A stretch of DNA of 54,162 nucleotides from an uncultured Gammaproteobacteria bacterium (lineage in GTDB: Bacteria; Patescibacteriota; Patescibacteriia; Magasanikbacterales; GWA2-37-8), in contig CAZLNR010000003.1 in NCBI GenBank assembly GCA_964561035.1, positions 3,558 through 57,719 of the forward strand. Direction: 5' to 3'. The notes under the pieces are model-generated. The model ran no database searches, had not been told where the DNA came from, and was given only the letters and a program-made list of their open reading frames with translations. The translations under genes were made by a program, and so were the position numbers. How positions within the stretch are numbered: position 1 is the stretch's first letter; the number at the start of each line of letters is the position of its first letter. This document shows positions 3,562 to 32,478 of the stretch, in pieces.

Positions 3562-5415
3562 TTAAATCTCAATTTTTTTATCACCAAGACGACTATTCTT
3601 CTTAAACCAGTCAAAAAATCCATTTTTTTGCTCGCCCACCATTAACTGTACTTGGGATTTTTTAGAAAAAAATGGCATTACCTGCGCTTTTATCTCCCCA
3701 CTATCCTCCAAAATCAGACCAACACTTATTCCTTCTTGAGTTTCTTTAGAGAAATACTGATCAAAAATAAAATTACCGAGAGAATAAAAGATAAATTTAC
3801 CTTTATATACTTCTGCTTCTTGGATTACATGCGGATGATGCCCGATAATAACATCAACACCCCAATCCACCAGCTGGTGCGCAATATTTTGCTGTTTGGT
3901 ATTAGAATTTCGCTTATATTCTTCTCCCCAATGAATATTTACTATTACAAACTTTGACTTACCTTTAGCATCTACCACTGCCTGTTTCACTTTTTTCATA
4001 TCCATCTCACCTTCTGTGGCATTTAAGCCAATAAAGGCAACGGTAAACGGCAGTCCTTGCTCTTGTCCGGCAAAATAGGTATATTCCGAACCTTGATGAT
4101 ACTCATCACCAAAATAGCCAAGCTCGTTTTTTTGCAGCACCTCCCGTGTAAAAGCCACATTTTGCTTTCCCATGTCATAGGAATGATTGTTGGCTAAATT
4201 GAATGCGTCAAACCCATATGATTTCAGCTGTATAGCTAGTGCCGGATCAAAACGAAACGCGATACTTTTACTAGTTTGCACTCGTACTGGCGCAAACGGA
4301 CCTTCCAGGTTGGCAATATACATGTTTACGCCTGTAAAAAACCTATCCTCTTGACCGCGCAGATTAGCAAAAACATAATTTAGCCCATCTTTATTCATAT
4401 TAAGCACCACATGCCGATCTAGCATTATGTCACCAAAGAATTGCAGAGTAGCGCCAGATTTTTTGGACGGCACACCTTCCGTATAATAACCAATAACATG
4501 ACTAGTGGTTTCAGGTAAATCATTACCTATAATACGACCACTGTTGGTATGAGAAAATAAAGAAAAAAATTGAGATTGTTTATTTTGGTTATACTTTAAT
4601 AACGCATACAAACTTGGCTGACTATCTACTTCTAGATTATTTAAATTTTCCAAGTTGGCGCTCTCCAGGACATTAAGCGATAATTCATCATGAAAATCTG
4701 CAGCTGATTTTGGTAAATAATGAGAAAAATCAACACTAGCTAAAAATAGCACCTTACCTTTGCTCTTTGCAAGAAATTCAACCAATTCATCAAGACGGTT
4801 ATTTGCAGTGCTATTTTTAATAATTAAAGGCACAACTGTGGCCTTGGGCCAGGTTTTTTTTACAAACGGCACTAGAGCAGAAATACTATGCTCATCGCCT
4901 ATTATCGCCGGACTTGCTGACGCAAAATGCTCATCAATAATGGTGTCAATTAATTTTTTGTTCGTATCCACAATTCCGTATGGCGTCTGCCAATCTAAAC
5001 GACTAGTAATAATCGCGTCTGAACCGATTTGCTTGTGATTAGGACCGATAATTATCACCGTATTAAATTTTTGACTAGCCAGACTGTTAAAAAAAGAACC
5101 AATAAACTGCCCAGCAATTAAATGGTGTGGCATAACTGCTGAAAAGACAGGGTTGCTTATTTTTTCTTGCATCTGAAGATTGGAAAAAAATACATCGTAG
5201 AAACCTTTATCCATAGAATAGGCTTGATGCATTTGAGAATCTACGGGCAACTGTTTATAAGTTCCCAACACAGGCAACTGAACTATCTGGCGATTATAAA
5301 ACCAAAAACCAAGCACTGCCGCTATTGTTGCCAACAAGAACACTCCAACAATATAGACGAGCCACCTGGTTTTAAAAAACATAGAATTTTCTATTTGCGA
5401 ATTACCCCTCCCCAC
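3562..5415 (-). CDS. Membrane-anchored fusion protein: an N-terminal MEMO1/AmmeMemoRadiSam-system-B-like domain and a C-terminal CapA (PGA_cap) metallophosphatase-like domain.
   Basis: MEMO-like strings: PHH...IIIGPNH...DEHSISALVPF...ASVDFSHYL. CapA-like strings: FFGDIMLDR...ANLEGP...NLANNHSYD...NIHWGEEY...GHHPHVIQ...SLGNFIFDQ. The likely start is MFFKTRW at 5382. Confidence 0.7.
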   Translation of the reverse strand: MGRGNSQIENSMFFKTRWLVYIVGVFLLATIAAVLGFWFYNRQIVQLPVLGTYKQLPVDSQMHQAYSMDKGFYDVFFSNLQMQEKISNPVFSAVMPHHLIAGQFIGSFFNSLASQKFNTVIIIGPNHKQIGSDAIITSRLDWQTPYGIVDTNKKLIDTIIDEHFASASPAIIGDEHSISALVPFVKKTWPKATVVPLIIKNSTANNRLDELVEFLAKSKGKVLFLASVDFSHYLPKSAADFHDELSLNVLESANLENLNNLEVDSQPSLYALLKYNQNKQSQFFSLFSHTNSGRIIGNDLPETTSHVIGYYTEGVPSKKSGATLQFFGDIMLDRHVVLNMNKDGLNYVFANLRGQEDRFFTGVNMYIANLEGPFAPVRVQTSKSIAFRFDPALAIQLKSYGFDAFNLANNHSYDMGKQNVAFTREVLQKNELGYFGDEYHQGSEYTYFAGQEQGLPFTVAFIGLNATEGEMDMKKVKQAVVDAKGKSKFVIVNIHWGEEYKRNSNTKQQNIAHQLVDWGVDVIIGHHPHVIQEAEVYKGKFIFYSLGNFIFDQYFSKETQEGISVGLILEDSGEIKAQVMPFFSKKSQVQLMVGEQKNGFFDWFKKNSRLGDKKIEI

Positions 5416-8222: not shown

Positions 8223-11200
8223 TTATTGTTTAAACCCAGTACCGGCTGGAATAAGTCTACCGATAATGACGTTTTCTTTAAGACCATCCAAGTAGTCAAT
8301 TTTACCAGTAATAGAAGTATTGATAAGCACCTTGGCTGTTTCCTGGAAGGAAGCTGCAGACAAGAAGCTTTGTGTGGAAAGAGAAACTTTGGAAATACCC
8401 AAGAACATTTCTCTGCCAACTGCTGATTTTCCACCATCTTTTTTAGCTTGACGATTGGAAAATTCTAATTGGGATTTTTCTACTACTTCACCAGGCAACA
8501 AATCGGTATCACCGGCATCTTCAATGTATACACGGCTAAACATTTGGCGAATGATGAGCTCTACGTGTTTATCGTTAACTTTCTGACCTTGAGAAGAGTA
8601 GATGTTCTGTACTTCTTGCAAGATATATCGCTGAACAGATTCTCTGCCCTTTAATTCAAACAATTGATGTGGGTTAATGCTGCCGTCGGTAAGAATATCA
8701 CCTTTCTCCACCTTGTCTCCAGTCTTAACCAAAATCTTATAGCCCATTGGAACGATATATTCTCGTACATGCGGACCTTCATAGGCTAAAGTGATGGTGT
8801 TTCGTTCAATTTTTACTGTACTTGGATATTTAGCAAGCACTTCTTCACCAGAAGCACCTCGCACTAATATCACCTGGTCTTTTTGTATAGAATCACCGTC
8901 TTTAACCATGATTTCATCTTCTGATTTGGTTTTAATTTTAATTTCATCCATGCCAGAGAAATGAATATGGATAATTTCTTGACCGCGGCGGCCTTCAAAA
9001 ATCTTTTTACCGCTTGGAGAAGTGATGATCTTTCCGTCTGCCTTTTCAATTTCAATTTCACCGCTCACTTCAGCGAGCATTGCCTGCTTCTTTGGAGTGC
9101 GAGCTTCAAATAATTCGTCTACACGAGGCAAACCTTGTGTAATATCGCCACCACCCGCCACACCACCAGTATGGAAGGTTCTCATGGTAAGCTGTGTACC
9201 CGGCTCACCAATGGATTGTGCAGCAATAATACCTACGGCCACGCCAAATTCTACCGGCTTGTTCTTTGACAAGTCAAAGCCATAACATTTGCGGCACACG
9301 CCTTTTTGCATATTACATTGCAAAATACTGCGTACCTTTACTGATTCTATTTTGTTTTCATCAATAGCGCGAGCAGCTTTATCATCAATCGCTTCACCTT
9401 CTTTTACCAGTACTTTATTACCGGCTTTAACAGTTTCTAGTACATATCTGCCCCAAACGCGATCTGACAATTTTTCACCCATTTCTTTTGATTGAGCAAC
9501 GGTAAAGAGTTCGCCGTTTGTATCGCCACAGTCTTCTTCAAACACAATTACATCTTGAGACACATCTACCAAACGACGAGTCAAATAACCAGCGTTCGCG
9601 GTACGAAGCGCGGTATCGGTCAAACCTTTTCTGGTACCGTGTGAAGAGATAAAGAATTCCAATACTTCAAAACCTTCTTTAAAGTTGCCTTTAACCGGCA
9701 ACTCAATGGTATCACCTGAAGGTGAAGCCACTAAACCTTTCATACCGATAACCTGACCAAGCTGACCCCAACTACCACGAGCACCAGAATCAATCATCGC
9801 GAATACTGGGCCGTCTTTGCGTAAAGTTTGTTGGTTCTTAGCAACAATCTTTTCTTTGGTTGCCGCCCAAATTTCCAAAATTTTGGCATGGCGTTCAGAT
9901 TGAGTAAGTAAACCTTCTTGATATTGCTCTTCTACCAACGCAACCACTTTGTCTGCTTCTTCCAACATTCCTGGTTTTTCCGAAATGGCTGGGAAATCAT
10001 CCATGCCTAATGAATAGCCGGATTTGGTTACATATCTATAACCAAGATTTTTCAATTCATCCAAGAAGAACGCAACCTCTTGCTGATCGCTTAACAATTC
10101 CAAGCACAAACGAATCACATGACCGAGTTTTTTCACAGTAATGGTTTCGTTAAAGTATGGGAGCTGTGGAGGTAAGATTTTATTGAACAAAATTCTACCG
10201 ACTGAAGTTTCCATAATAGGATTTGTTCCTTCAGGAAAACGGCTCACATCTTGGAAACGAACCTTGATGCGTTCTTGCAGTGTAATAACACGAGAACGAT
10301 AGGCCAAAATACTTTCTTGTTCAGAACTAAAATATTTCTTTACTTCTGCCACATCATCAGATTCGTAACGAGTCAAATAATAACATCCGAGTGCGATATC
10401 CTGTTTTGGCGTGATGACCGGACTGCCAGTAGCTGGTTTTAAGATATTTTTTTCTGCGGCCATTAAGTTGTCTGCTTCCCAACGAGCTTCAACTGTAAGC
10501 GGCAAGTGTACGGCCATCTGGTCACCATCGAAGTCGGCGTTAAACGCAGTACATACCAACGGATGCAACTGGATAGCTTTACCTTCAATCAAACGAGGGT
10601 GGAAAGCCTGAATACCAAGACGGTGCAAGGTTGGAGCGCGGTTTAAGAGCACGCGAGTCTTCTTTGTTAAATCTTCCAAAATGTCCCATACTTCATCGTG
10701 TTCGGCTTCAATATATTTGGAAGCGCTACGAACATTGTGAGCAAGCTCTCGCTTAATCACTTCACTCATGATAAACGGTTTAAAGAGTTCCAAAGCCATG
10801 CGTTTTGGCAAACCACATTCATCAATGTTTAAGTTTGGACCAACTACGATTACGGAACGGCCAGAGTAGTCCACACGCTTACCAAGCAAGTTCTGACGGA
10901 AACGACCCTGTTTACCTTTCAAAATATCTGCTAATGAGCGCAATTGTCTCTTTTGGCCTGTAGAGGCGGTTACAGTTTTTGCTTGTCTGGCGTTATTATC
11001 AACCAGCGCATCAACCGCTTCTTGCAACATGCGTTTTTCATTGCGGCAAATAACTTCCGGCGCATCCAACTCTAATAATCTGCGCAAACGATTATTGCGG
11101 TTAATTACACGGCGATATAAGTCATTAAGATCAGAAGTAGCAAAGCGGCCGCCATCAAGAGCAACCATTGGACGCAAATCTGGAGGAATAACTGGAATAG

Positions 11201-21286: not shown

Positions 21287-21316
21287 ATTTTTACTTTTTA
21301 CTGGAGTAGTGTTTAA

Positions 21317-21389
21317 GGGCCCTTAGCTCATTTGGTAGAGCACCGCGTTTGCAACGCGGGGGTGATCGGTTCGAGCCCGATAGGGTCCA
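21317..21389 (+). tRNA. tRNA-Cys (GCA)
   Basis: Manual cloverleaf: acceptor GGGCCCT/AGGGTCC, anticodon loop TTGCAAA, T-arm ATCGG-TTCGAGC-CCGAT. No CCA is encoded. Confidence 0.9.
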
Positions 21390-21395
21390 CAATTT

Positions 21396-21470
21396 GCCGC
21401 GGTAGCTCAGTGGTAGAGCGCAGCCCTGAAGAGGCTGGCGTCGTCAGTTCAATTCTGACCCGCGGCACCA
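21396..21470 (+). tRNA. tRNA-Phe (GAA), with CCA encoded
   Basis: Acceptor GCCGCGG/CCGCGGC, anticodon loop CTGAAGA, T-arm GTCAG-TTCAATT-CTGAC, then ACCA. Confidence 0.92.
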
Positions 21471-21486
21471 AGGTTGTACAAAATAA

Positions 21487-21560
21487 CGGGGTATGGCTCA
21501 ATTGGCTAGAGCACCTGGTTTGGGACCAGGGGATTGTGGGTTCAAGTCCCACTACCCCGA
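21487..21560 (+). tRNA. tRNA-Pro (TGG)
   Basis: Acceptor CGGGGTA/TACCCCG, anticodon loop TTTGGGA, T-arm GTGGG-TTCAAGT-CCCAC. Its last 3 nt belong to the island core site. Confidence 0.92.
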
Positions 21561-23069
21561 CAACACGGAACATCTATAATTTTTAAAGGAATTAACATTT
21601 TGGTCGGTCAAACGTACGGCCACGTTTTTGGCGTAACCACCAACAATTTTAAAACCCCCCACCCACAACCACGACATTTTTCTTCCCCCGAGGCGGCGGT
21701 TCGTTCCGTGCTCTGCCACAAATGATTTTATTTCATAAAAATCATTCGACACCGCCAATTTTTCCGCATGGTGAGCGGCTTTCCAGAATTCACGCATGGG
21801 TTCGATCCACAAAACCCCTTTTCTTCTCAAAGCAGACCTTTTTTGATGAAGGTCTGCTTTTGTTTTAATCAATTCCTCTTTTTTTAAGAGGTAGATTGAT
21901 TTTTCTATAGTATTATCTAAATAGGAATCAACCAGTTTATTTAACCTCTGCTCTATTTCTTGGGTTTTGGTTTCAAGGCTTTGGGAAAAAGAAATATTGT
22001 CATTTTTTAATTCTTTTTCCCATTTCTCTATCTGAGCAAGCCCTTGGCTATACCAGTCATCAGAAATGGCAACAGCTTTGATTTCTGCTTTAATCTGTTC
22101 CGCAAGTTTGTTTTCTTGAAGATATTTTTGTGAGCACGGGCCTAATCTTTTTGTGCAACGATAATAACGGTAAGTTCCACCGTGGCCATGGGCAAATTGG
22201 GCAGTGATGGCCGCGCCGCATTCTTGGCAAGAAAAAAGGCCGCAAAAAGGAAAATCATGACTATCTTTTTTCTTGCGAGGGCGGGATTTGCTTTTGAGTA
22301 TTTTTTGTACGGTTTCAAATGTCTTACTATCCACCAGAGCAGGAAATTTGCCCTCGTAGGCTTCTCCGTTGTGTTGAATAATGCCAAGGTAGGCTTTGTT
22401 GGTCAGAAGCCGAAAAATTCCTGCTTTCACTAGGGGCTTGCCTACACTACTCGCCACGCCCCAAAAACTTAGGCGTTCGGAAAGGCTTCGCAGAGTATGG
22501 TTATGAGTAGCAAATTCTTGAAAGGCTTTAGCTACTATTCTGGCTTTGAGCGGGTCAGGTTCAATATTTCTTGTTTTTGGATTGTTAATATATCCAAATG
22601 GGGCTTTGGTAGGCCATTCGCCGCGCCTAAGTTTTTGGCGAACGCCACGCTTTACATTTTCGCTTAGATTGTCGGAATAATATTTTGATTGCCCAAAGGC
22701 TACTTGGAGCATGAAAAGTCCTTGCGGGGTTGGCTCAAACCAAAAAGTGGGAAAGCGCAAAGAAACTATTTTTTCTATGTCTATACTATATATAATCTGC
22801 CCTCCGTCTATGCTGTTTCTAGCAAGTCTATCCGGATGCCAGGCAAGCAGACCTACAGGCTCTTTGCTCTTTTGTACTTCGTTCATCATTTCATTAAAGA
22901 CTTCTCGGCCGGGTTTCTTTGCGCTTTTACTTTCTATAAAGGTTTGAGCAATCAAAATATTTTCTCTTTTTGCAAACTCAGACAGTTCGGCCAGCTGGGC
23001 TTCTATGCTCATGACCTGCCTTTCTTCATCCTCGGTGCTTTTGCGGACATAGAGAAAATATTTTGTCAT
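21552..23069 (-). CDS. Large serine recombinase (phage-integrase type): resolvase catalytic domain, recombinase domain, zinc beta-ribbon, coiled coil.
   Basis: MTKYFLYVRKSTEDEERQ..SIEAQ...HPDRLARN (catalytic Ser/Arg motifs); GEWPTKAPFGY; CGLFSCQECGA...YYRC zinc ribbon. The start is taken at ATG 23069 because the track's 23180 start adds a non-homologous leader. The 3' ~150 nt lie inside repeat A and the ORF ends inside tRNA-Pro. Confidence 0.88.
   Translation of the reverse strand: MTKYFLYVRKSTEDEERQVMSIEAQLAELSEFAKRENILIAQTFIESKSAKKPGREVFNEMMNEVQKSKEPVGLLAWHPDRLARNSIDGGQIIYSIDIEKIVSLRFPTFWFEPTPQGLFMLQVAFGQSKYYSDNLSENVKRGVRQKLRRGEWPTKAPFGYINNPKTRNIEPDPLKARIVAKAFQEFATHNHTLRSLSERLSFWGVASSVGKPLVKAGIFRLLTNKAYLGIIQHNGEAYEGKFPALVDSKTFETVQKILKSKSRPRKKKDSHDFPFCGLFSCQECGAAITAQFAHGHGGTYRYYRCTKRLGPCSQKYLQENKLAEQIKAEIKAVAISDDWYSQGLAQIEKWEKELKNDNISFSQSLETKTQEIEQRLNKLVDSYLDNTIEKSIYLLKKEELIKTKADLHQKRSALRRKGVLWIEPMREFWKAAHHAEKLAVSNDFYEIKSFVAEHGTNRRLGGRKMSWLWVGGFKIVGGYAKNVAVRLTDQNVNSFKNYRCSVLSG
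21558..21704. repeat. Inverted repeat arm A (147 bp), the perfect reverse complement of 23179..23325. Similarity resumes at 21708-21719 after an indel.
   Basis: Manual base-by-base comparison found no mismatch. The arm starts with the core site. Confidence 0.9.
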
Positions 23070-23113
23070 ACTCCTTAGGTTAAATGTAAAGCGTGGCGTA
23101 AAATTGGCTGTGT

Positions 23114-23132
23114 GTTCCGACTTAATCGGAAC
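23114..23132. promoter_or_regulatory. 19-bp palindrome GTTCCGA-cttaa-TCGGAAC, 45-63 nt upstream of the recombinase ATG. It is a candidate operator or accessory site.
   Basis: Direct reading. It shares the CGGAAC/GTTCCG string with the core site. Confidence 0.4.
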
Positions 23133-23178
23133 GTGGCAGAGCATGGCAACACTTTGGTGTTGGGGCGCCTCTGCGCCC

Positions 23179-23325
23179 ACGAACCGCCGCCTCGGGGGAA
23201 GAAAAATGTCGTGGTTGTGGGTGGGGGGTTTTAAAATTGTTGGTGGTTACGCCAAAAACGTGGCCGTACGTTTGACCGACCAAAATGTTAATTCCTTTAA
23301 AAATTATAGATGTTCCGTGTTGTCG
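23179..23325. repeat. Inverted repeat arm A' (147 bp), ending in the internal inverted core site C2 (23307-23325)
   Basis: Perfect reverse complement of 21558..21704. It is preceded (23133-23178) by a copy of the recombinase 3' end plus a 31-nt insertion containing two hairpins. Confidence 0.9.
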
Positions 23326-23544
23326 AAAATCCTGAACGACGTACGAATGTATTTTGAAACGATTTATTAGCTAGGGGGCTAATGTGTAGGGGCTTTGCCC
23401 CTACAACCCCACAAAATTTCGGCGGGCAAAAAGGAAGGGGTTAGGGGAAGGAATTTTTGCCCGCTGGTGGCGACGATTTCGGAAACCCTACCATTTGTTC
23501 GCCGAAGGGGTGTTGTTTCGTGCACGTTTCACGTGCGCGCCGCC
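23307..23544. repeat. Inverted repeat arm B (~214 bp near-identical, plus a ~24-nt diverged extension). It looks G+C-richer than the flanks and is hairpin-dense. Its partner is 32210..32449.
   Basis: Manual alignment to the reverse complement of 32235..32449 gives identity except for 3 substitutions and a ~30-nt variable patch (23392-23420). The extension keeps a hairpin with a different stem sequence. Confidence 0.88.
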
Positions 23545-23550
23545 ACACAA

Positions 23551-26500
23551 TTACCTCACTTTCAATTTACGATGCACAAAATCAAATATTCTGTGCTTTA
23601 CATAATCTTTCAAATCACGATTTGAATCAAGTTTTTTATATAAATCAAAGTGATTATTGACCATCCCAATCAATTCATCCTGAAACACCGCATCAAATTT
23701 GATTTTGGCCGCTTCACGTGTATTATTTCTAACCGCACCCTCTACTCCTTCGTTCTCTAATAATCGTTTACTTAAATTATTTAATATAATTCTATCATCT
23801 CCAGAAAAATTTGTACCAAATTTCTCATTTACATCCTTAATAATCTTTGACAACAACTCTTTTTCCTCTTCTTGTTCACTTCTACCTCGCCCATCAATCG
23901 GCTCAATTACTCCATCAATATTTTCCAATTCTATTTTTGTCTCACTGGTCTTAGATATTTTATATGATTCCATATCCACACTTTCTAACACTTCAAATGG
24001 CAATCGTTCTTTAATCACCGGCAATTTACGAATTAAAAAACGAACAAACACATATAATTTCTCCAAACTCGTGGCTTCAAAAGTAATAATTTGGGCAATA
24101 AAAGCATACTTACGAATATAGTCCTGTAATTTACTTCTAAAATCCTCTTGCTCCTCAGACAAATACTGTTTAAATCTTACAGCAACACCATCAAGAAAAC
24201 TATTTAAAACCGATGGCTTTGCTCCGGCAAAATAATCAGTAACAAAATGCTCAATCTCATCCTCACTAAACATTTTAAAATTCAAAATATCTCGTTCCAA
24301 ATCGTGCAAAATATTCGGGTCGGTGGCTTCCGAAAGAATAGTGGTAGTGTAATATGGCTGGAACGATTCTTTAATATCATCCGCATCATTTACAAAATCA
24401 AGTACAAATACTTCTTCTTTATTTGGACACGTGCGATTTAACCGACTCAATGTCTGAACTGCATTCACTCCTCCCAATTTTTTGTCCACATACATCACTG
24501 TCAGTAATGGCTGATCAAAACCGGTCTGAAACTTCTCCGCTACAATCAAAAATTTATACTCGTCCTTTTTAAACTCTTCCGCAGTATTTTTTTCCGGCAC
24601 ACCATTCATTTGGCCTTCGGTATATTCTAGCCCACCATCTTTAACCGTGCCAGAAAAGGCCACCATGGCCTTGAAAGGATAGCTGTGGCGCTTTAAATAA
24701 GCATCCACGGCCATTTTATACCGCACAGCGTGCAAACGTGATTTGGTAACAATCATCGCTTTGGCATTGCCGTTAATTTGTTTTTCAATATTATTAATAA
24801 AATGATCCACCATTATTTCTACCTTTTTATTTATCGCATGCTCGTGACGTTCAACATAAGAAATCAACAACATTTGCGCTTTTTTCTTTTTGAATTCCGG
24901 GTCATCCTCGGCTTTTTTGAGCAAAGAAAAATATACTTGAAAAGTTGTATAATTTTTCAACGTATCCAAAATAAATTTTTCCTCAATCGCCTGCTTCATT
25001 GAATAGAGGCTAAATGGGTAAAACTTTCCATCCGACACACTACGTTGGCCAAAAATTTCCAGTGTCTTTTGTTTTGGAGTGGCGGTAAAAGCAAAAAAAC
25101 TAATATTATTTGTTTTTGCGCGACGGCTTTTCATTTCTTTGAGTACCATATCCTCGGTCGTTTCCACTTCAAAAGCCTCCTCTTCATTTTCCGCTTCGGT
25201 TAAAACCACATCTTCATCTGTATTGCTAGACGCATTCAAAACTTGTTTCAAACTTTTTGTACTCTCACCAGATTGTGAAGAATGTGCTTCGTCGATAATT
25301 ACCGCAAATTTTTTACCTGGTATTGCGTCCATATTTTCCACGATAACCGGAAACTTTTGCAAAGTAGTAATAATTATTTTTTCTCCAGCTTCTAATGCTT
25401 CTTTTAATTCTTTGGAACCTTCCACAATTGGCTTAACTACACCGGCAGTTTGCGCAAACTGCATAATCGTATTGCGTAATTGCCTGTCCAGCACACGACG
25501 ATCTGTAATTACAATCACCGAATCAAAAACTTTTTTATCTTTGGTATTATGCAACTCCGACAAGTGGTGGGCAGCCCAGGCGATGGTATTACTTTTACCA
25601 CTACCGGCACTGTGTTGGATAAGATAGCTTTTTCCTGCTCCATTTTCTCTAGCGTCGCGAACTAACCGACGAACGGTATCAAGCTGGTGGAATCGTGGGA
25701 AAATCAATGTTTCGGCAAAATATTTATGCCCTTTTGCATCAGTTTTCTCAATTTTCTCTAAATGTACAAATCTGCTAATTATTTCCAGCGCACTTTCCAC
25801 TGTCCAAATATCCTCCCATACATAGCTAGTTTTGTAACCATCAGCATTCACCGGATTGCCAGCAGAATTATTATTACCTTTATTAAATGGCAAAAAATAT
25901 GTTGCCAGCCCCGCTAATTTGGTGGTCATATATACCAACTCTGTATCAACCGCAAAATGCACCAAGCATCGCTTAAAAGATAACAATTTTTCTTTAGGGT
26001 CACGGTCAGTACGATATTGTTGAATGGCATTTTTTACCGATTGGCCGGTGAGTTGGTTTTTGAGTTCAATGGTAAAAATCGGCAACCCATTCAAAAATAT
26101 CACCATATCAATGGAGTTTTCATTTTTGTCGCTATATTTTACCTGTCGCATTACACTTAAAATATTGCTTTCAAATTGTTTTTTTACTTCCTCATTCAAG
26201 CTGGTCTCTGGCTTAAAATAAGCTAAATCAAACCGCGAGCCGTGGTCGCTTAATCCGCTTCGAAGCACATCCAGAACCCCGCGCGCTTGGATTTCTTCGT
26301 CTAACCGAGTTAAAAATCGCTGCTCCACATCCGCACCATGCTGATCTACCAATTTCTGCCATTCTTTTTCTTGGGACTTTTTTATAAATTCCAAAACAAG
26401 CTCAGCATCAAAACACAAAGCTTTATCATAAACATCAGGCTTACGTTCCAGAAAGCCATTATTTTTTACCAAATATCCCTCAATAAAATCCTCGAACCCT

Positions 26501-26562
26501 TTTTCTGCGGTGTTTGTTTTCATATTATTTTTTTTCAAATATTTCACGTTGGGCTGGTTCAA
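23551..26562 (-). CDS. hsdR: Type I restriction enzyme R subunit (HsdR)
   Basis: N-terminal nuclease region; SF2 motor motifs GSGKSNTIAW (motif I), VIIDEAHSSQ (DEAH, motif II) and TATP (motif III); ~1000 aa. The likely start is MKTNT at 26523, 1 nt after the orf311 stop. Confidence 0.93.
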   Translation of the reverse strand: MNQPNVKYLKKNNMKTNTAEKGFEDFIEGYLVKNNGFLERKPDVYDKALCFDAELVLEFIKKSQEKEWQKLVDQHGADVEQRFLTRLDEEIQARGVLDVLRSGLSDHGSRFDLAYFKPETSLNEEVKKQFESNILSVMRQVKYSDKNENSIDMVIFLNGLPIFTIELKNQLTGQSVKNAIQQYRTDRDPKEKLLSFKRCLVHFAVDTELVYMTTKLAGLATYFLPFNKGNNNSAGNPVNADGYKTSYVWEDIWTVESALEIISRFVHLEKIEKTDAKGHKYFAETLIFPRFHQLDTVRRLVRDARENGAGKSYLIQHSAGSGKSNTIAWAAHHLSELHNTKDKKVFDSVIVITDRRVLDRQLRNTIMQFAQTAGVVKPIVEGSKELKEALEAGEKIIITTLQKFPVIVENMDAIPGKKFAVIIDEAHSSQSGESTKSLKQVLNASSNTDEDVVLTEAENEEEAFEVETTEDMVLKEMKSRRAKTNNISFFAFTATPKQKTLEIFGQRSVSDGKFYPFSLYSMKQAIEEKFILDTLKNYTTFQVYFSLLKKAEDDPEFKKKKAQMLLISYVERHEHAINKKVEIMVDHFINNIEKQINGNAKAMIVTKSRLHAVRYKMAVDAYLKRHSYPFKAMVAFSGTVKDGGLEYTEGQMNGVPEKNTAEEFKKDEYKFLIVAEKFQTGFDQPLLTVMYVDKKLGGVNAVQTLSRLNRTCPNKEEVFVLDFVNDADDIKESFQPYYTTTILSEATDPNILHDLERDILNFKMFSEDEIEHFVTDYFAGAKPSVLNSFLDGVAVRFKQYLSEEQEDFRSKLQDYIRKYAFIAQIITFEATSLEKLYVFVRFLIRKLPVIKERLPFEVLESVDMESYKISKTSETKIELENIDGVIEPIDGRGRSEQEEEKELLSKIIKDVNEKFGTNFSGDDRIILNNLSKRLLENEGVEGAVRNNTREAAKIKFDAVFQDELIGMVNNHFDLYKKLDSNRDLKDYVKHRIFDFVHRKLKVR

Positions 26563-27460
26563 TATCTAAAATTATTAATTTTGGTTTTTGATATAAAGAA
26601 GTCCGTAGTATCTCAGCAGTTATAGTAACTAAACTTGTTTTATAAAATCCTCTATAATCTTCGGTGCCTTTACCATCAGACGGAAGCGCAATTAAGTCAC
26701 GGTGCTTTGGGTCAACGTCCTCTAATCTAAATCGCATTGTATCACCCCTTGAAGCCTGCAAAGCAATTATAGAACCCCTCAATTCCATAATTGCACCATT
26801 ATACATGTCTGGAAGTATCTTCTGGTCATCACCGAGATAATCTCCAAAATTTTCCTGCGTAATTTCAACTGGCTCTAAAAAATCTGGTTTATCACTAAAC
26901 TTCACACTACTCATATCAGTTTCCGCTTCAATAAATGGTTTGAGGATTTTCTTAAATTTATTTCTTTTGACAATTCTATGTAAACGTTTGGTCGGCTCGA
27001 CAGGCATCGGCCTTTCGTTATACGTAGTTTGAATCTTATTTTTCTGATATTTGGCAAAACCAAGACACATAAGTAAATATGATCCAAGTCCGTAGGCAAC
27101 TGCCTTTGCAATATCATAATCAACGGGGTTCTTACCTGCAAAATCATTTAAACTTCTGCGATACTCTAAAAATTTAGCCAGGGCTTCGCCGCCTATCATC
27201 TGGAAAAACTCCAGCGCATGTTGTCCGTGCAAAAATAAATCAGCTGTAGCAACAATCAAAACTTGATTATCGATAATTATCGACCCTTCGCGCGCTCTTA
27301 TTGCCTTAACTTTTACATTACCTTTAATCAGGGCAACACCTCCAATTAATTGGCGTAAAAGTTCCTCAAAACCAATTAACGATTCACCTAAAACTGACAG
27401 GTCTACAGGAGAACTATTTGTCGGTGTGTATTTTATATAAAACTTTGCTTCACATTCCAT
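26525..27460 (-). CDS. Hypothetical protein (orf311) embedded between hsdS and hsdR, with no recognisable domain
   Basis: 311-aa ORF with codon style like its neighbours. TAA-T-ATG junctions at both ends (hsdS stop 27464-27462 / ATG 27460; its own stop 26527-25 / hsdR ATG 26523) indicate translational coupling. Confidence 0.75.
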   Translation of the reverse strand: MECEAKFYIKYTPTNSSPVDLSVLGESLIGFEELLRQLIGGVALIKGNVKVKAIRAREGSIIIDNQVLIVATADLFLHGQHALEFFQMIGGEALAKFLEYRRSLNDFAGKNPVDYDIAKAVAYGLGSYLLMCLGFAKYQKNKIQTTYNERPMPVEPTKRLHRIVKRNKFKKILKPFIEAETDMSSVKFSDKPDFLEPVEITQENFGDYLGDDQKILPDMYNGAIMELRGSIIALQASRGDTMRFRLEDVDPKHRDLIALPSDGKGTEDYRGFYKTSLVTITAEILRTSLYQKPKLIILDIEPAQREIFEKK

Positions 27461-27461
27461 A

Positions 27462-28805
27462 TTATACTTTTACCTTCCCAGTAACCACATTATAGATTAG
27501 GGACGATTTATATTCTTGTAGTAATTCTATTGATTTTTGAATTTTCTCACTACATTCATCAATTTTAGCAATTTTTTCATCCAAAAACTTCGCAATTTTT
27601 TCTTGTTCTTCAATTTTTGGAATAGTAGAAATTATATTTTTTAAATCATCTATTGTTAGCTGGTTAATAGTTGATGTAGCTGATGACCTAAGCTGAAAGA
27701 AAAATAGTTCCGACTTAAAAAAGTATGCCATATATCTCCAGTAACTACTTCTAAAAATAGACATAAACACTCCGAAAGTATTACCTTCGCCAGGCCCATT
27801 AATAACGGCGCTTTTACCAATTAACGCAGCGCTTCCATTTCGTGAGCATATTAAGATGTCCCCTTTTTTTGTTTTTAGATTCTTGGGTATTGATTTTTTA
27901 ACATAAATATTATCATTTAATTCAATAGTATTATTTTGAATGTTTGAAGAGCGAAGAACCAGTGTGCCTTCAGCTTCATCGGTAACATCCTCCGGACTAT
28001 AGGTCAAGCCAATAATGGCCTGACCAACAAATTTTAATTTCTCCACCCTCCACCCCTTCGGCACTTTCCCAATCCATCCCACTCCACTATCTACCAGTGT
28101 TGCATCTTCACCCAATCCACGTGTTACAGCCCGGTTAATCACCGCTGCACGCTTCTCCTTTAACAACTCAACCAGCTTTTGTTTTTGCTCAATGCTTTTA
28201 TGAATACTTGCAGTTTTAGCATCTAGATAATCGGCAATTTTTTTCTGAATTTCACGAGAAGGATTAACAAAGTATTCTGAAAAATAATTATATAAATCTA
28301 AATTTTGTATACCTGTGGTTTGTTTGATCGATCTAACGTTTAACCGCGTTGAATATGCGGCGGATAAAAAATAAATAAAATATCTCGGCTCAACCTCCTC
28401 TTTAACATCAATCACCTCAATAAAATTGGCACACACCATCTTTTCTACAGAATTAAACAAAATTGCCCTACCTACAGGTTGTTTTTCTCCACCACCTGAT
28501 TTTTCAAGTAAAATATTTCCCTTTTTTAACAGCTTCCTTCTTTGATCATCTTTGGAAACATTCCGAACTGTTTCAATTTCTCCGAATCCAAAATTTTCAT
28601 AATTAAAATCAGCAACCCTGAGGCACATTACATCATTAACATCAGCCTTAGGATCTTCACCCCATATACCAGAAAAATGATGTTTAATAAATTTTTTTGG
28701 TTGTATCACCTTCCAGTTCTTTGGAACCATTCCAATCCAGTCAACTCCAGAATCTTGATAATCTGGATATTTTTGAATTTGTTTTTTTAATTCTATTTTT
28801 TGCAT
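27462..28805 (-). CDS. hsdS: Type I restriction-modification specificity subunit (HsdS) with two target-recognition domains
   Basis: Two variable halves separated by the conserved helix KQKLVELLKEKRAAVINRAVTRGL, ending in the conserved SIELLQEYKSSLIYNVVTGKVKV. Confidence 0.9.
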   Translation of the reverse strand: MQKIELKKQIQKYPDYQDSGVDWIGMVPKNWKVIQPKKFIKHHFSGIWGEDPKADVNDVMCLRVADFNYENFGFGEIETVRNVSKDDQRRKLLKKGNILLEKSGGGEKQPVGRAILFNSVEKMVCANFIEVIDVKEEVEPRYFIYFLSAAYSTRLNVRSIKQTTGIQNLDLYNYFSEYFVNPSREIQKKIADYLDAKTASIHKSIEQKQKLVELLKEKRAAVINRAVTRGLGEDATLVDSGVGWIGKVPKGWRVEKLKFVGQAIIGLTYSPEDVTDEAEGTLVLRSSNIQNNTIELNDNIYVKKSIPKNLKTKKGDILICSRNGSAALIGKSAVINGPGEGNTFGVFMSIFRSSYWRYMAYFFKSELFFFQLRSSATSTINQLTIDDLKNIISTIPKIEEQEKIAKFLDEKIAKIDECSEKIQKSIELLQEYKSSLIYNVVTGKVKV

Positions 28806-28811
28806 ACAAAA

Positions 28812-30875
28812 TTATAGCTTTTTTAACATCTCCAATAATTCATTCTCCACCCCTTCAATCTCACCTTCAATCTCTGTCAATTCTCGTGGTGGAATATATT
28901 TGTAAAAATACCGAGTAAATGGGATTTCATAACCTACCTTACCCACCTCGTTATCCTTATGGTCGCGCACGGTTTCATTTATCCAAGCATCTGGCGCAAA
29001 TGGTTTTACTTCCTTTTCAAAATATTTGTAAACATCCATACCCCATGGCACATTCTCGCTGTCGCGGAGCTCGCTATCCGGTTCTGGCTTGCGTTCACTA
29101 TCCATACACACATCTGCAGTCTCATCGCGCTCGCTTAACTCCTGCAAAATAGTTTTAAGTATTGGAGCTGGAACTTTTATTTTGACTTGCTTAAATTTAT
29201 TTTCAAGCAACCCCAAAAACTCTTCGCGATTTTTATATAGTTTATCGCCAATACTATCTAATACTTTATAAATCTCAGCGCGTAGATTTTGCCATTCTTT
29301 ATTTTCTGTTTCACCTGCCGTGCCTTTCTTTTTACTTGGAACATCATTTTTCATTTTTTCCGTTTCTTTTAATATTGCCAACCGCTCTACATTGGCTTGA
29401 AAATTTAATTTTAATGGTCGTTCGATGATAATCTGACGAAAAGCAAAATCAGTGGTATTAAAAATTTTGCAATATTCATTTTCTGTAAATGAATTATATA
29501 ACTCCAAAATCTTAGCCCGATTTTCATCGGATATTACATGGCGTTTATTGCCAAGCGACTTACGCATTTTTTCAAAAAATATTCTGGCATCAATGAGCTG
29601 TACCTTATTTTGTCTTTTCTTTTCTTTACGATTGCTCAAAAACCATACATACGTATTAATACCGGTGTTGTAAAACAGTTGATCTGGCATCGCCACAACC
29701 GCATCTAGCCAATCATGCTCTAGTATCCAACGACGAATTTCGCTTTCTCCGCTGCCAGCGTCGCCCGTAAACAGCGGCGAACCATTAAATACAATAGCCA
29801 AACGCGAACCACCATCAATCGGGTTACGCATTTTAGAAATAAGATGCTGTAAGAATAAAAATTGCCCATCGGAAATTCTAGGCAAACCAGCGCCAAACCG
29901 GCCGGCAAAACCGCGCTCGGCTTCTTTTTCTACCGCCTCTTTGTCTTTTTTCCAATCCACGCCGAATGGAGGATTTGTCAGACAATAATCGAACTGCTCA
30001 CCAATAAATTGATCATTGGTAAGTGTACTGGCTTTGGAATGGTCCTTATCTCCACCTTTGATTTTATCCGGATCATCGCCTTTAATAAGCATGTCGGATT
30101 TGCAGATAGCGTATGTAACCGGATTCAATTCTTGCCCATACAAATATATGTCAGCATCTTTATTGATAACAGACAAAATATGCTCTTTGCTTGTCGTTAA
30201 CATTCCCCCTGTACCACTAGCGCAATCATAAATTGTTTTAATGATATGTTTTTTGTTTAGCAATTCTTTGTCAGGCGCGAACAAAATTTCCACCATCGTT
30301 TTGATAACTTCGCGTGGGGTGTAGTGCTCACCGGCAGTCTCGTTTGATTGCTCATTAAATTTACGGATTAATTCTTCAAAGATAGAACCCATTTCATGAT
30401 TACTGGTGACGCGCGGATGTAAATCAATTTTGTTAAATTCTTTTAAAATCAGATATAATAAATTTCCACCTTCCAAACGGGATAATTGTTTTCCAAAATC
30501 AAACTTGGCAAAAATTTCTTTAATATTGTCGCTAAATCCATCAATAAAATGCTGTAAATTTTTGGCAATATTTTTTGGATCTTCCAGTAGTTTGGCAAAA
30601 TCATACGGCGAGGTATTGTAAAAACCTACCTTGCTAGCCGATTTAAGAATTGGATCAAGCTCTACTTTGCCATGAAACCTGTTATACTGCTCCAACACTG
30701 CCGGTTTAGTATCGGCCAACACGGAATCCAACCGCCTCAAAACAACGAGTGGTAAAACAACATCCTGATATTCGTACTGTTTCCAGCCACCACGTAAAAG
30801 CTCTGCGATTTGCCAGATAATACCAGCTTTGGAATTGAAGTTATTCATATGTATATTATTTTGAATTACCGTCAA
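28812..30875 (-). CDS. hsdM: Type I restriction-modification N6-adenine DNA methyltransferase subunit (HsdM), long form
   Basis: AdoMet motif [10 protein letters not shown], catalytic NPPFG ([10 protein letters not shown]) and an HsdM N-terminal helical domain. An ATG at 30848 is an alternative to the track's start at 30875. Confidence 0.93.
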
Positions 30876-32037
30876 TAAATAAATCTAAATACTCTTTGAG
30901 AAAAAAAATGCGGTTGCGAGAAAAACCAGTTTTTTCAATAAAAAGACCAAGTCGCTCAAATTCATTGGCCAGCGTAGTAGCAGTTTGAATACTAGCATTC
31001 ATCAATTCTTTAATGTCTTTAACTGTAACACCCGGCTGAGAAAACAATTGTATTAACAGTTCTTTTCCGGCCTTCTGACGCTTAATACCCATGCCAGATT
31101 CAATTGTACTTTCATACCGTTTGCGCAAAGCAATAATTTTTTCAAATGTTTCTTTGCCTGTTTTTGCAGTTTGGCTAATACCAGTGAGAAAAAAACGAAT
31201 CCAATGCTCTATGTCGCCTGTCTGTCTAACCATAGACAAAGCATCGTAATATTTAGTTCGATTTTTCTCAAAGAAATCAGATATATATAAAGTTGGTTTT
31301 TTGAGAATACCTAAATCAACCAGCTGAAGAGTAATTATCAGACGGCCAATACGACCATTACCATCAAGAAATGGATGGATAGTTTCAAATTGGTAATGTG
31401 AAATAGCGGCTTTAATTAAATCTGGGATTTCCAAATTTTTATTGTGCCAAAACTTTTCCAAATCTCCAAGCAGCTCTGGAACATCTGTATGGTGCGGGGG
31501 AATAAAAACAGCATCGGCAAGAGTAGCTCCACCAAGCCAATTTTGACTGTGACGAATTTCTCCTGGCTGTTTACTATAACCACGAACACCAGAAAGCAAT
31601 ATTTTATGAGAATCTTTTACTAATCGAATTGATAATGGCAATTGTTCCAATTTTTTAACTGAATAATTGATAGCTTGAATATAGTTATCAATTTCTTCCC
31701 AGTCATTACGTTTTTCTGGCGCCAACTCTTCGCTTGATAACACAGCTTCATCTAAATTAGTTTTTGTACCCTCAATACGACTGGACTGTGTGGCTTCTTT
31801 GGCCACATGCATACGGATAAAAAAATCTACATCTGGCACAAGAGTAGAATATGCGTTAAGTTCCCCTAAATAACGCATAGCATCTGAAAGTAGCAAGTTA
31901 ATGCGTTTATCTTCCCAATCGAAAGGTTTATTTATGGGCGTTGGCACAAAACTTTTATAACTATTTTGCTGGCGATATGTACCTGCGATGAATTTTGATT
32001 TTGACATAGTAATTAGATTAAGATAATCTATATTCAA
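30856..32037 (-). CDS. fic: Fic family protein (AMPylase-type) with an N-terminal autoinhibitory-helix motif and a C-terminal wHTH
   Basis: Fic motif [12 protein letters not shown]. The inhibitory [S/T]xxxE[G/N] motif is present as SSRIEG upstream of the core. The true start is probably ATG 32007, because the track start at 32037 is TTG at the predicted transcription start. Confidence 0.9.
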
Positions 32038-32066: not shown

Positions 32067-32209
32067 GACATATTACACACAGTTTACCCCAGTATACATA
32101 ATTTGGCTCATTTTAACGGATCTTGGGAGCCTGCCATAACCCAACGCGCACGCACGGGTGGGCAGGAGCAAGCGCGTTTCTAGCAAATAACACCATAATC
32201 AATCGGTCG

Positions 32210-32449
32210 GGCGGCGCATTCGCCAAAGCGAATACGAAACAACACCCCTTCGGCGAACAAATGGTAGGGTTTCCGAAATCGTCGCCACCAGCGGGCAAAA
32301 ATTCCTTCCCCTAACCCCTTCCTTTTTGCCCGCCGAGATTGTACTGGGTTATAGGGGGCAGAGCCCCTACACATTAGCCCCCTATCTAATAAATCGTTTC
32401 AAAATACATTCGTACGTCGTTCAGGATTTTCGACAATTCGGAACATCTA
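32210..32449. repeat. Inverted repeat arm B', the partner of 23307..23544, ending in the distal core site C3 (32431-32449)
   Basis: See arm B. ATTCGC-caaa-GCGAAT at 32218-32233 replaces the GCACGT-ttc-ACGTGC hairpin of the other copy. Confidence 0.88.
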
Positions 32450-32478
32450 AAAACATTCTTACAACAAAGAATGTTTTT
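32449..32478. terminator. Strong hairpin terminator (AAAAACATTCTT-acaaca-AAGAATGTTTTT) abutting the island's right end
   Basis: 12-bp stem including the A/T runs; bidirectional form. No upstream plus-strand gene is present unless the island is removed, in which case it would follow tRNA-Pro. Confidence 0.75.

Follow-up and report, generated by a model that had tools for sequence, protein, structure and literature searches.

A hairpin-bearing inverted repeat arm in a widespread family of tRNA-adjacent integrative islands

Introduction

The closest described relatives of the element reported here are the serine-recombinase islands, among them SCCmec (CcrAB/CcrC), the fdxN element of Anabaena (XisF), SPbeta (SprA) and the Vibrio PLE, which have a three-domain recombinase, insert site-specifically, use a very short common core and carry variable cargo that often includes defence genes. 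We describe an element with the same traits in a 54,162-nt stretch of DNA from an uncultured patescibacterium (contig CAZLNR010000003.1; the whole stretch is called the window), and focus on one hairpin-rich segment at positions 23326-23544, which has a second copy at 32210-32430. This segment belongs to the conserved backbone of an element family that is very widespread, and we are highly confident that it is one arm of a ~220-240-bp inverted repeat which brackets the cargo of a 10.9-kb integrative island.

Several other systems resemble parts of this layout. The yeast 2-micron plasmid has a recombinase, Flp, whose FRT sites lie inside 599-bp inverted repeats. Serine invertase switches (Hin, Gin, Cin, Pin) and invertons likewise hold an inverted-repeat segment beside a serine recombinase gene and occur in two orientations. 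Stems that are conserved in structure and not in sequence are found in integron attC sites, the ends of IS200/IS605, plasmid single-strand origins and oriT hairpins as well as in the arms described below, and the bridge RNA of IS110 is, like these arms, a structured non-coding region between a promoter and a recombinase gene that overlaps the donor site.

Results

The island sits at the 3′ end of tRNA-Pro(TGG), which is the left half of its insertion site (attB), and was probably placed there by a large serine recombinase (Table 1). It contains two nested inverted repeats, one around the recombinase gene (X) and one around a cargo of type I restriction-modification and Fic genes (Y; primes mark inverted copies), and the right X arm runs directly into the Y arm. 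A core of ~20 nt, CGACAAnnCGGAACATCTA, is present three times: between the tRNA and X, inverted between Y′ and X, and between Y′ and host DNA, and the three sites have CGACAA..CGGAACATCT in common. These three copies with their flanks form the pattern of an attL, a complete inverted copy of attP and an attR. Judged by this pattern, X′ and Y together appear to be an internal, inverted and complete attP-type site (Y′-core-X), and integration by attP x attB and excision by attL x attR are predicted from the sites. The attR junction was found identically in two independent short contigs of the same organism. Locus L247, which belongs to a species other than the window host (DsbA 75% identical, downstream synteny kept, flank not alignable base for base), is free of the island: its tRNA-Pro has the same final 30 nt, a terminator hairpin comes immediately after them, and the locus thus seems to offer an island-free view of the insertion site. 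In the window, the tRNA operon probably once ended at the hairpin and T-run beyond attR, a terminator that the island has since parted from the tRNAs; the genes beyond it are DsbA- and VKOR-like host genes.

A one-genome-per-species scan of reference genomes returned at least 580 loci, 80 of which were fetched; the counts given below are over 86 sources, and L numbers stand for contigs or loci of related elements that were compared with the window. The hosts include many classes of Patescibacteria as well as Omnitrophota, Bacteroidales, Planctomycetia, Ignavibacteria and others, and a single 6.2-Mb contig of Bacteroidales carries two copies (L068 and L070). Adjoining the 3′ end of the recombinase gene and antisense to it, a tRNA gene was present in 64 of the 86 loci; 44 of these are tRNA-Pro, and the other targets comprise tRNA-Met, Gln, Arg, Trp and more. 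The X-type repeat occurs in 74 of the 86 loci with a median identity of 100% (40 exact), and an abutting Y-type repeat in 21 of the 86, where 145-435 nt with a median identity of 99.4% enclose 1.1-8.9 kb of cargo. In the five closest relatives (L001-L005), which all lie at a tRNA-Pro 3′ end, the recombinase is flanked by a repeat of 93-147 nt at 99-100% identity, and the abutting Y-homologous inverted repeat is 97-100% identical within each element around cargo that differs. The Y arm itself was found by nhmmer in 75 sources. At the overlap of X and Y the arms have 3-8 nt in common in the 21 loci, which fits a very short crossover, and 22 nt in the window.

The recombinase matches the Pfam domains Resolvase (1e-21), Recombinase (1.5e-9) and Zn_ribbon_recom (5e-9), all above gathering scores, and has more than 7000 homologues, the best 120 of which are 62-85% identical to it. 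Its matches to XisF, Ccr and SprA are weak and far below every curated family cut-off, and by this comparison it appears distant from SPbeta SprA, XisF and CcrA/B. The conserved part of the protein ends at GTNRRL, exactly at the start of X, which argues that X is a spacer between the functional end of the gene and the crossover; the complement of the left X arm encodes the non-conserved C-terminal tail. Because the X arms are identical, the recombinase gene would remain intact in either orientation. The right X arm lies 110 nt upstream of the recombinase start codon. Among the genes of the element, domain annotation revealed no recognisable directionality factor.

Three loci depart from the common layout. 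In L047 the internal attP site is swapped for a second genuine tRNA-Pro gene, and the recombinase module (940-2937) lies between inverted tRNA-Pro genes (GGG at 941-1012, CGG at 2863-2936), which suggests a past recombination between the internal attP copy and another attB, with inversion of a chromosomal segment. On an 88-kb Bacteroidales contig (L081:2430-4886), the recombinase is flanked on each side by a complete Y′-core-X site, with no tRNA adjoining; this may be a non-integrated or differently embedded form. L213:1-4260 is a recombinase-free derivative, with a tRNA 3′ end, a perfect 52-nt palindrome, Y, 3.8 kb of cargo, Y′ and the palindrome again.

The open reading frames in the cargo of 27 elements encode mainly restriction-modification systems of types I-III, a small HTH protein as the first gene, S24/LexA and SMODS, and further AAA_15/21, GmrSD, Fic and HNH; judged by these annotations, the cargo appears to consist mostly of defence genes and to vary between related elements. 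Just outside the distal arm of two of the closest relatives (L004:2968-4440 and L005:162-1634) lies a diversity-generating-retroelement pair (bAvd and an RVT_1 reverse transcriptase). Searches of IMG/VR gave 39 pattern matches to the arm, none of which was confirmed by nhmmer, and blastn found no match in plasmid and phage collections; a phage or plasmid origin was rejected on these grounds. Many homologous recombinase genes lie on contigs of 1.8-2.0 kb or a few hundred bases from a contig end, as expected if perfect inverted repeats of 90-200 bp break short-read assemblies, and the element family is probably under-represented in binned genomes.

Within the window, a repeat search returned the arms as an inverted pair (23304-23521 and 32234-32452), and in a global alignment positions 23326-23544 share 203 identities in 221 columns with the reverse complement of 32210-32430. 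The copies are identical over 23421-23521 and also over their first 45 nt; 8.7 kb separates them. Their G+C contents are 0.51 and 0.50, compared with 0.37 for the cargo between them and 0.40 for the whole window. A preliminary description of the segment, made from its letters, had reported two G+C-rich inverted copies with an identical core of ~100 nt, and these as well as the stems that it named were found where it had put them. It had also attributed the segment to an island, which agrees with arms that bracket the cargo of the 10.9-kb element; its suggestion of a free-standing non-coding RNA gene gives way to two arms of one inverted repeat. The repeat extends ~22 nt farther than first described, out to 23304 and 32452, and these nucleotides overlap the perfect 147-bp inverted repeat X (21558-21704 and 23179-23325). 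The arm has no similarity to the tRNA cluster at 21300-21565 and tRNA calling of the ARAGORN type finds no tRNA in it, which rules out a remnant of that cluster.

Whole-arm folding energies are only moderately better than those of shuffles (z = -3.8 and -2.8 for copy 1, -1.25 and -1.4 for copy 2), and the two window copies alone prove little on structure. The evidence for structure therefore has to come from comparison with the relatives. In the variable patch, which the preliminary description took to preserve pairing, copy 2 has a 6-bp stem with a 6-nt loop that 7% of shuffles match or better; this is a weakened stem, not a compensated one. Likewise, the GCACGT and ATTCGC stems at the ends of the two copies had been regarded as a single diverged stem, and they turned out to belong to two classes which are set out below.

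The alignment of 37 distinct full-length arms, together with profile searches in the 75 sources, divides the arm into a half-site and three hairpins (hp1-hp3). The ~45 nt beside the core, TGTCG.A..T..CTGAACGAAG..CGAAC.TTTTTTGAA, are the most widely conserved part of the arm; with the start of X they form the dyad GTTCAGGATTTT[CG]ACAACACGGAAC, and their first few bases vary with the identity of the target tRNA. We consider this outer segment a putative recombinase half-site, by which the earlier idea of a recombinase accessory element came close: half of an attachment site is present, and an accessory role of the hairpins survives as a rival explanation only. Hairpin hp1 is G+C-rich, with perfect 7-11-bp stems of at least eight sequences in 19 of 30 distinct arms, and is absent from the remaining ones. 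Hairpin hp2 (GGGCGGGCAAAAA, loop GGAAGGGGGTTGGGGGGAAGGAA, TTTTTGCCCGCCC) has a 13-16-bp stem and a loop of 21-23 nt in which the G-tracts are kept throughout. Over 51 distinct copies, 87% of its cells are paired and 13 of 16 pairs have changed on both sides; none of 500 shuffles reaches this score, and sliding the partner lowers pairing to 38-57%. Its pairs comprise 602 Watson-Crick (~92%), 19 G-T and 9 A-C. Hairpin hp3 consists of TTTCGT, a perfect 6-8-bp palindrome with a 3-4-nt loop and the motif GCGCCGCC; it was found in 35 of the 37 arms, where its stem takes at least 13 sequences and has almost no wobble pairs. Similarity between elements with different cargo stops right after GCGCCGCC on its 3′ side, and hp3 with GCGCCGCC thus appears to mark the border with the variable cargo.

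A fourth hairpin, hp4, follows the motif GGGAG once per element (in the window at 32143-32178, with the stem AACGCGC/GCGCGTT and the G-rich loop ACGCACGGGTGGGCAGGAGCAA). Its stems in relatives include TTGCGC/GCGCAA, AACGCGC/GCGCGTT, GTTGCCC/GGGCAAC and GTTGTGT/ACACAAC around the loop GCGCACGGGNGGGNNGGGGCAA. All seven pairs have changed on both sides among 35 distinct copies, 93% of cells are paired, none of 500 shuffles reaches the score, and wobble pairs number 8 G-T against 3 A-C. Inspection by eye only revealed no covarying complementarity between the loops of hp4 and hp2. The base pairs of hp1, hp2, hp3 and hp4 are thus kept by compensatory substitutions, as is characteristic of a structured nucleic-acid element. 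The earlier observation is real, and the hairpins are under selection for pairing. The stem-preserving divergence that had been proposed accordingly holds across the element family (hp2 and hp3 covary) and fails between the two window copies. Further homologues and covariation, for which the description had asked, were found: the arm is present in 75 sources, and its stems covary. The Rfam comparison returned no known family: in Rfam 15 only the tRNAs reach their gathering score, the best matches of the arms have 12-20 bits (E ~1-10) against gathering scores of 55-87, and a known RNA family was rejected for arms and hp4 alike. No conserved open frame exists in the arm; a 2-nt indel in the hp2 loop, a 28-nt deletion and a frame-breaking 1-nt indel in conserved blocks of relatives rule out a coding explanation, as had been supposed.

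Every element in which both arms were seen has one hp3 of each of two classes. Class A starts and ends with AT (e.g. ATTCGC..GCGAAT) and always lies at the promoter end of the cargo, where GGGAG and hp4 are also found and nowhere else; class B starts and ends with GC (e.g. GCACGT, GCCGGC, GCCAAC) and lies at the cargo 3′ end. The GCACGT and ATTCGC hairpins of the window therefore represent two end-specific classes that are conserved separately. In 18 loci, hp4 is located upstream of the recombinase and reads toward it, with the class-A hp3 beside the recombinase as well; only in the window and in L011 is hp4 distal and reading away. The distal hp4 and class-A hp3 mean that the cargo module of the window is inverted relative to the 18 related loci, a rare isomer, and the module occurs in both orientations between different elements. 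L006 has two A-end motifs (hp4 and arm; 3941-4270 and 9264-9688) in the same orientation, ~5 kb apart, and may thus have gained two cargo modules by tandem accretion.

Could the hairpins be without function, either as remnants or as selfish palindromic insertions that gene conversion homogenised, or else as assembly artefacts? The arms are almost identical within an element and 15-30% divergent between elements, which points to frequent gene conversion or recombination between arms, and this homogenisation (median 99-100%), by which the two window copies alone say little, would fit such a reading, as would the optional hp1. However, gene conversion within elements cannot yield paired substitutions between elements with constant loops, and the same architecture recurs in many assemblies from different assemblers and samples, including the 6.2-Mb contig with two copies. 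We rejected an assembly artefact for the latter reason and regard a lack of function as very improbable.

The transcription context bears on an RNA reading of the arm. From an outward promoter, the canonical order is hp4, hp3, hp2, hp1, core, X and the recombinase gene. Promoter-like sites that read outward lie just upstream of GGGAG and hp4 in many elements; L004 has a sigma-70-like promoter there (TTGACT-18-TATAAT, 11 of 12 matches). A second promoter-like site ahead of the recombinase gene was not found in the canonical elements scanned. The window has no such site between hsdR and the recombinase start, the leader at 23070-23178 included, and at its A end a weak one (TACACA-17-CATAAT) that points at the host terminator. 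On this basis the arm could be a structured RNA, namely the 5′ leader of the recombinase mRNA in the canonical orientation and, at the other end, the 3′ end of the cargo operon, whose hairpins would tune, insulate or terminate transcription, thereby holding the recombinase low and the cargo transcripts confined. Besides the outward promoters and the missing promoter between arm and recombinase start, such a role would be supported by covarying stems with conserved loops, which are typical of RNA, and by the class-B hp3, which follows the last cargo gene by a few nucleotides and is on average more stable than the class-A hp3, through which a transcript would need to pass; the cargo inversion of the window would uncouple the recombinase from the outward promoter.

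Several observations are at odds with an RNA leader. No hairpin is followed by a U-tract: a terminator scan of both arms was empty, hp3 being followed by GCGCCGCC or ACGAAA and no T-run, and with an hp2 loop of 21-23 nt the arms do not have the make-up of an intrinsic terminator. The leader or the C/U-rich hp2 loop shows no consistent pairing with the recombinase ribosome-binding site in 11 elements, for which reason sequestration of that site by the hp2 loop was rejected, and no Rfam family applies. Furthermore, the position of hp2 relative to the core varies among lineages, and in several of them, including L138, L145, L006, L065 and L082, its G-loop is found on the other strand with respect to the core, hp4 and the recombinase gene. 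Where hp2 is flipped, the same transcript would carry the complementary loop, which argues against a strand-specific cis-regulatory RNA as once proposed; these flips and the rarity of wobble pairs, which show no clear strand preference, tend to favour a signal required on either strand over a cis-acting mRNA leader. Taken together, we consider the RNA leader a serious alternative, somewhat less likely than the DNA signal discussed below.

A more specific RNA role, in which a trans-acting or guide RNA from the arm programs the recombinase much as the bridge RNA does in IS110, would account for a structured non-coding module that spans the donor site between outward promoter and recombinase gene, and for many different tRNA targets despite a protein that is 60-85% conserved. 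Against it, the longest backbone match to the target tRNA averages 7.5 nt compared with 6.8 nt in shuffles (48 loci), and we rejected an IS110-type guide because these contiguous matches are no longer than chance. Moreover, hp1-hp3 do not follow the target (L019 and L044, which both insert at tRNA-Met, differ in hp1), only a few core nucleotides covary with the tRNA end, and the protein, a large serine recombinase of the usual make-up, brings DNA-binding domains of its own. Such a guide seems to us hardly credible.

Table 1. Features of the island and its flanks in the window
Feature	Position	Strand	Remarks
tRNA-Pro(TGG)	21487-21561	+	last of an Ala-Phe-Pro cluster; ARAGORN and Rfam
Large serine recombinase gene	21552-23069	-	505 aa from ATG at 23069
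X arm, left copy	21558-21704	+	147 nt, 100% complementary to 23179-23325
Crossover core 1, CGACAACACGGAACATCTA	start of left X arm		with the tRNA end forms attL
Recombinase leader	23070-23178	-	unique sequence between X′ and start codon; ribosome-binding site AAGGAG
X′ arm, right copy	23179-23325	+	ends with inverted crossover core 2 (23304-23325)
Y arm, copy 1	23326-23544	+	half-site, hp1, hp2, class-B hp3, boundary motif
Putative recombinase half-site, copy 1	23326-~23370
hp1, copy 1	23386-23404		GTAGGGGCtttGCCCCTAC
hp2, copy 1	23421-23464		GGCGGGCAAAAA...TTTTTGCCCGC
Class-B hp3 and boundary motif, copy 1	23522-23544		GCACGTttcACGTGC (23522-23536) and GCGCCGCC (23537-23544)
Cargo operon	23551-32037	-	Fic (30856-32037), hsdM, hsdS, 311-aa protein, hsdR (23551-26562); Pfam and PADLOC
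Promoter-like site of cargo	32066-32038	-	TTGACA-17-TATTCT; promoter scan
A-end motif, GGGAG and hp4	32125-32178	+	reads outward from cargo
Y arm, copy 2	32210-32430	-	Y sense on the - strand
End of copy 2, class-A hp3 and boundary motif	32210-32233	-	ATTCGCtttgGCGAAT (32218-32233) and GCGCCGCC (32210-32217)
hp2, copy 2	32291-32334
Weakened hp1, copy 2	32352-32369
Putative recombinase half-site, copy 2	~32386-32430
Crossover core 3, TCGACAATTCGGAACATCTAAA	32430-32452	+	with Y′ forms attR; host DNA starts again
Host hairpin and T-run	32449-32478	+	AAAAACATTCTT-acaac-AAAGAATGTTTTT

In the cargo operon, the 311-aa open reading frame between hsdS and hsdR (26525-27460) has no match in Pfam or NCBIfam. 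At the start of the window lie three direct copies of a 182-nt unit (335-516, 1274-1455 and 1463-1644; 92-96% identity) and further repeats ~1140 nt apart (872-990/2012-2130 and 576-622/1713-1759), which probably reflect repeated gene segments.

Discussion

Our comparison leads us to favour, with somewhat less than even confidence in the explanation as a whole, an island arm whose hairpins serve as folded-strand signals. After excision, two inverted attP-bearing repeats would split the circle into a recombinase module and a cargo module, and the integrated island would hold attL, an internal inverted copy of attP and attR. The hairpins would be signals that are needed on both strands, and the inverted duplication would supply both; most likely they would work while the DNA is single-stranded or extruded. 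They might prime or protect the second strand of a copy that is excised or incoming, or they might shield the long repeats. The pairing demanded of the stem, the reading demanded of the loop, the lack of a fixed orientation and the inverted duplication together suggest a signal required once per strand, and this combination points to a single-stranded or extruded stage of the DNA. For the hairpin mechanism taken by itself, a DNA signal on both strands, our confidence is lower, and we put it forward tentatively, as a reading of the sequence comparisons.

A number of observations weigh against this explanation. The element carries no replication or transfer gene, and excision, active inversion and a single-stranded stage are predictions from the sequence. 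The cargo inversion in the window could be the work of the recombinase or of plain RecA homologous recombination between long repeats, without any designed function. With an outward promoter and no other promoter before the gene, the arm is probably transcribed and may act as RNA; hp4, single per element and always directed outward, is transcript-like, and the slight excess of wobble pairs on the G-loop strand of hp2 and hp4 would, as weak evidence, fit RNA as well.

Another way to keep the arm on the DNA level is to regard all of it as recombination site, with accessory or architectural hairpins to which additional subunits of the recombinase or proteins of the host would bind, possibly in cruciform shape, and which would control directionality or favour inversion and the exchange of cargo at the GCGCCGCC border. 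The arm lies directly beside the crossover core and is duplicated together with it, homology between elements with different cargo ends exactly on the 3′ side of GCGCCGCC, the element has no separate gene for a directionality factor, and cargo is present in both orientations, all of which would suit an accessory site. Large serine recombinases, however, generally need only sites of ~40-50 bp and are not known to need accessory sites. In L227 the arm is well conserved beside a recombinase that is only 42% identical, where a site that co-evolves with a protein should have drifted; moreover, hp1 is missing in one third of the arms, and the position and orientation of hp2 relative to the core vary. 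We therefore judge an accessory site improbable.

If the folded-strand explanation is right, one backbone, recognisable by a recombinase in perfect inverted repeats, hairpin arms and a tRNA 3′ end, would explain a large share of the small tRNA-adjacent defence islands in Patescibacteria and other poorly studied phyla, and would provide a handle for new defence cassettes between GCGCCGCC borders. The family would add compact serine integrases for which genome sequences directly reveal attP and attB, as well as a natural case of an integrated element that keeps a complete attP, and hp2 and hp4 would be conserved nucleic-acid motifs new to Rfam. A bolder proposal, which we offer as speculation and think improbable, is that the element is a bacterial, integrating counterpart of the 2-micron plasmid whose sole backbone gene, the recombinase, acts on two inverted attP-bearing repeats. 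It would then isomerise, keep a spare live attP once integrated and shuffle defence cassettes, and hp2, hp3 and hp4 would represent a new class of folded-strand signals (a host-primed origin, second-strand priming or a recombinase cofactor site) by which a one-gene element could establish itself in hosts from Patescibacteria to Bacteroidales.

How does the element compare with known systems? Unlike the serine-recombinase islands named at the outset, it has a recombinase below the curated cut-offs and targets the 3′ end of tRNA genes; its recombinase gene and cargo each lie within long, near-identical inverted repeats, and a complete copy of attP is retained, without a recognisable gene for a directionality factor and with conserved hairpins in the arms. 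Invertase switches are immobile and rely on small serine recombinases, sites of ~26 bp and an enhancer bound by Fis, whereas our element has a large serine recombinase, arms of 145-435 bp and integration at tRNA genes; with 505 aa in its recombinase and both orientations seen between different elements only, it is not a switch of this type. The IS110 bridge RNA belongs with another enzyme family, while the arms have no target complementarity and no Rfam match. A transposon or miniature inverted-repeat transposable element was likewise rejected, given two copies in 54 kb, no transposase and arms that are always beside a recombinase module and a tRNA. In the literature that we searched there is no description of this element family, although an earlier one is possible, and the double inverted repeat, the retained attP copy and the hairpin arms are part of no known system that we found; the element is apparently an undescribed variant.

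For the hairpins, the closest analogies appear to be folded single-strand DNA signals such as attC sites and single-strand origins, in which short conserved motifs likewise adjoin the stems, as hp3 lies between TTTCGT and GCGCCGCC; Pfam and domain annotation revealed no integron integrase, HUH transposase, Rep or relaxase in the element backbone. The combination of a hairpin with GCGCC may also recall the nick regions of MOBQ. For the circular form, the 2-micron plasmid seems the closest analogy, where replication and recombinase-driven flipping are conjectural on the side of our element. Both would be circles made of two long identical inverted repeats, each with a recombination site, and two unique segments, with the recombinase encoded in one of them, and in both the two relative orientations exist. 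They differ in that Flp belongs to the tyrosine recombinases and the plasmid, in a eukaryotic host, replicates without integrating, whereas the element described here is an island at bacterial tRNA genes.

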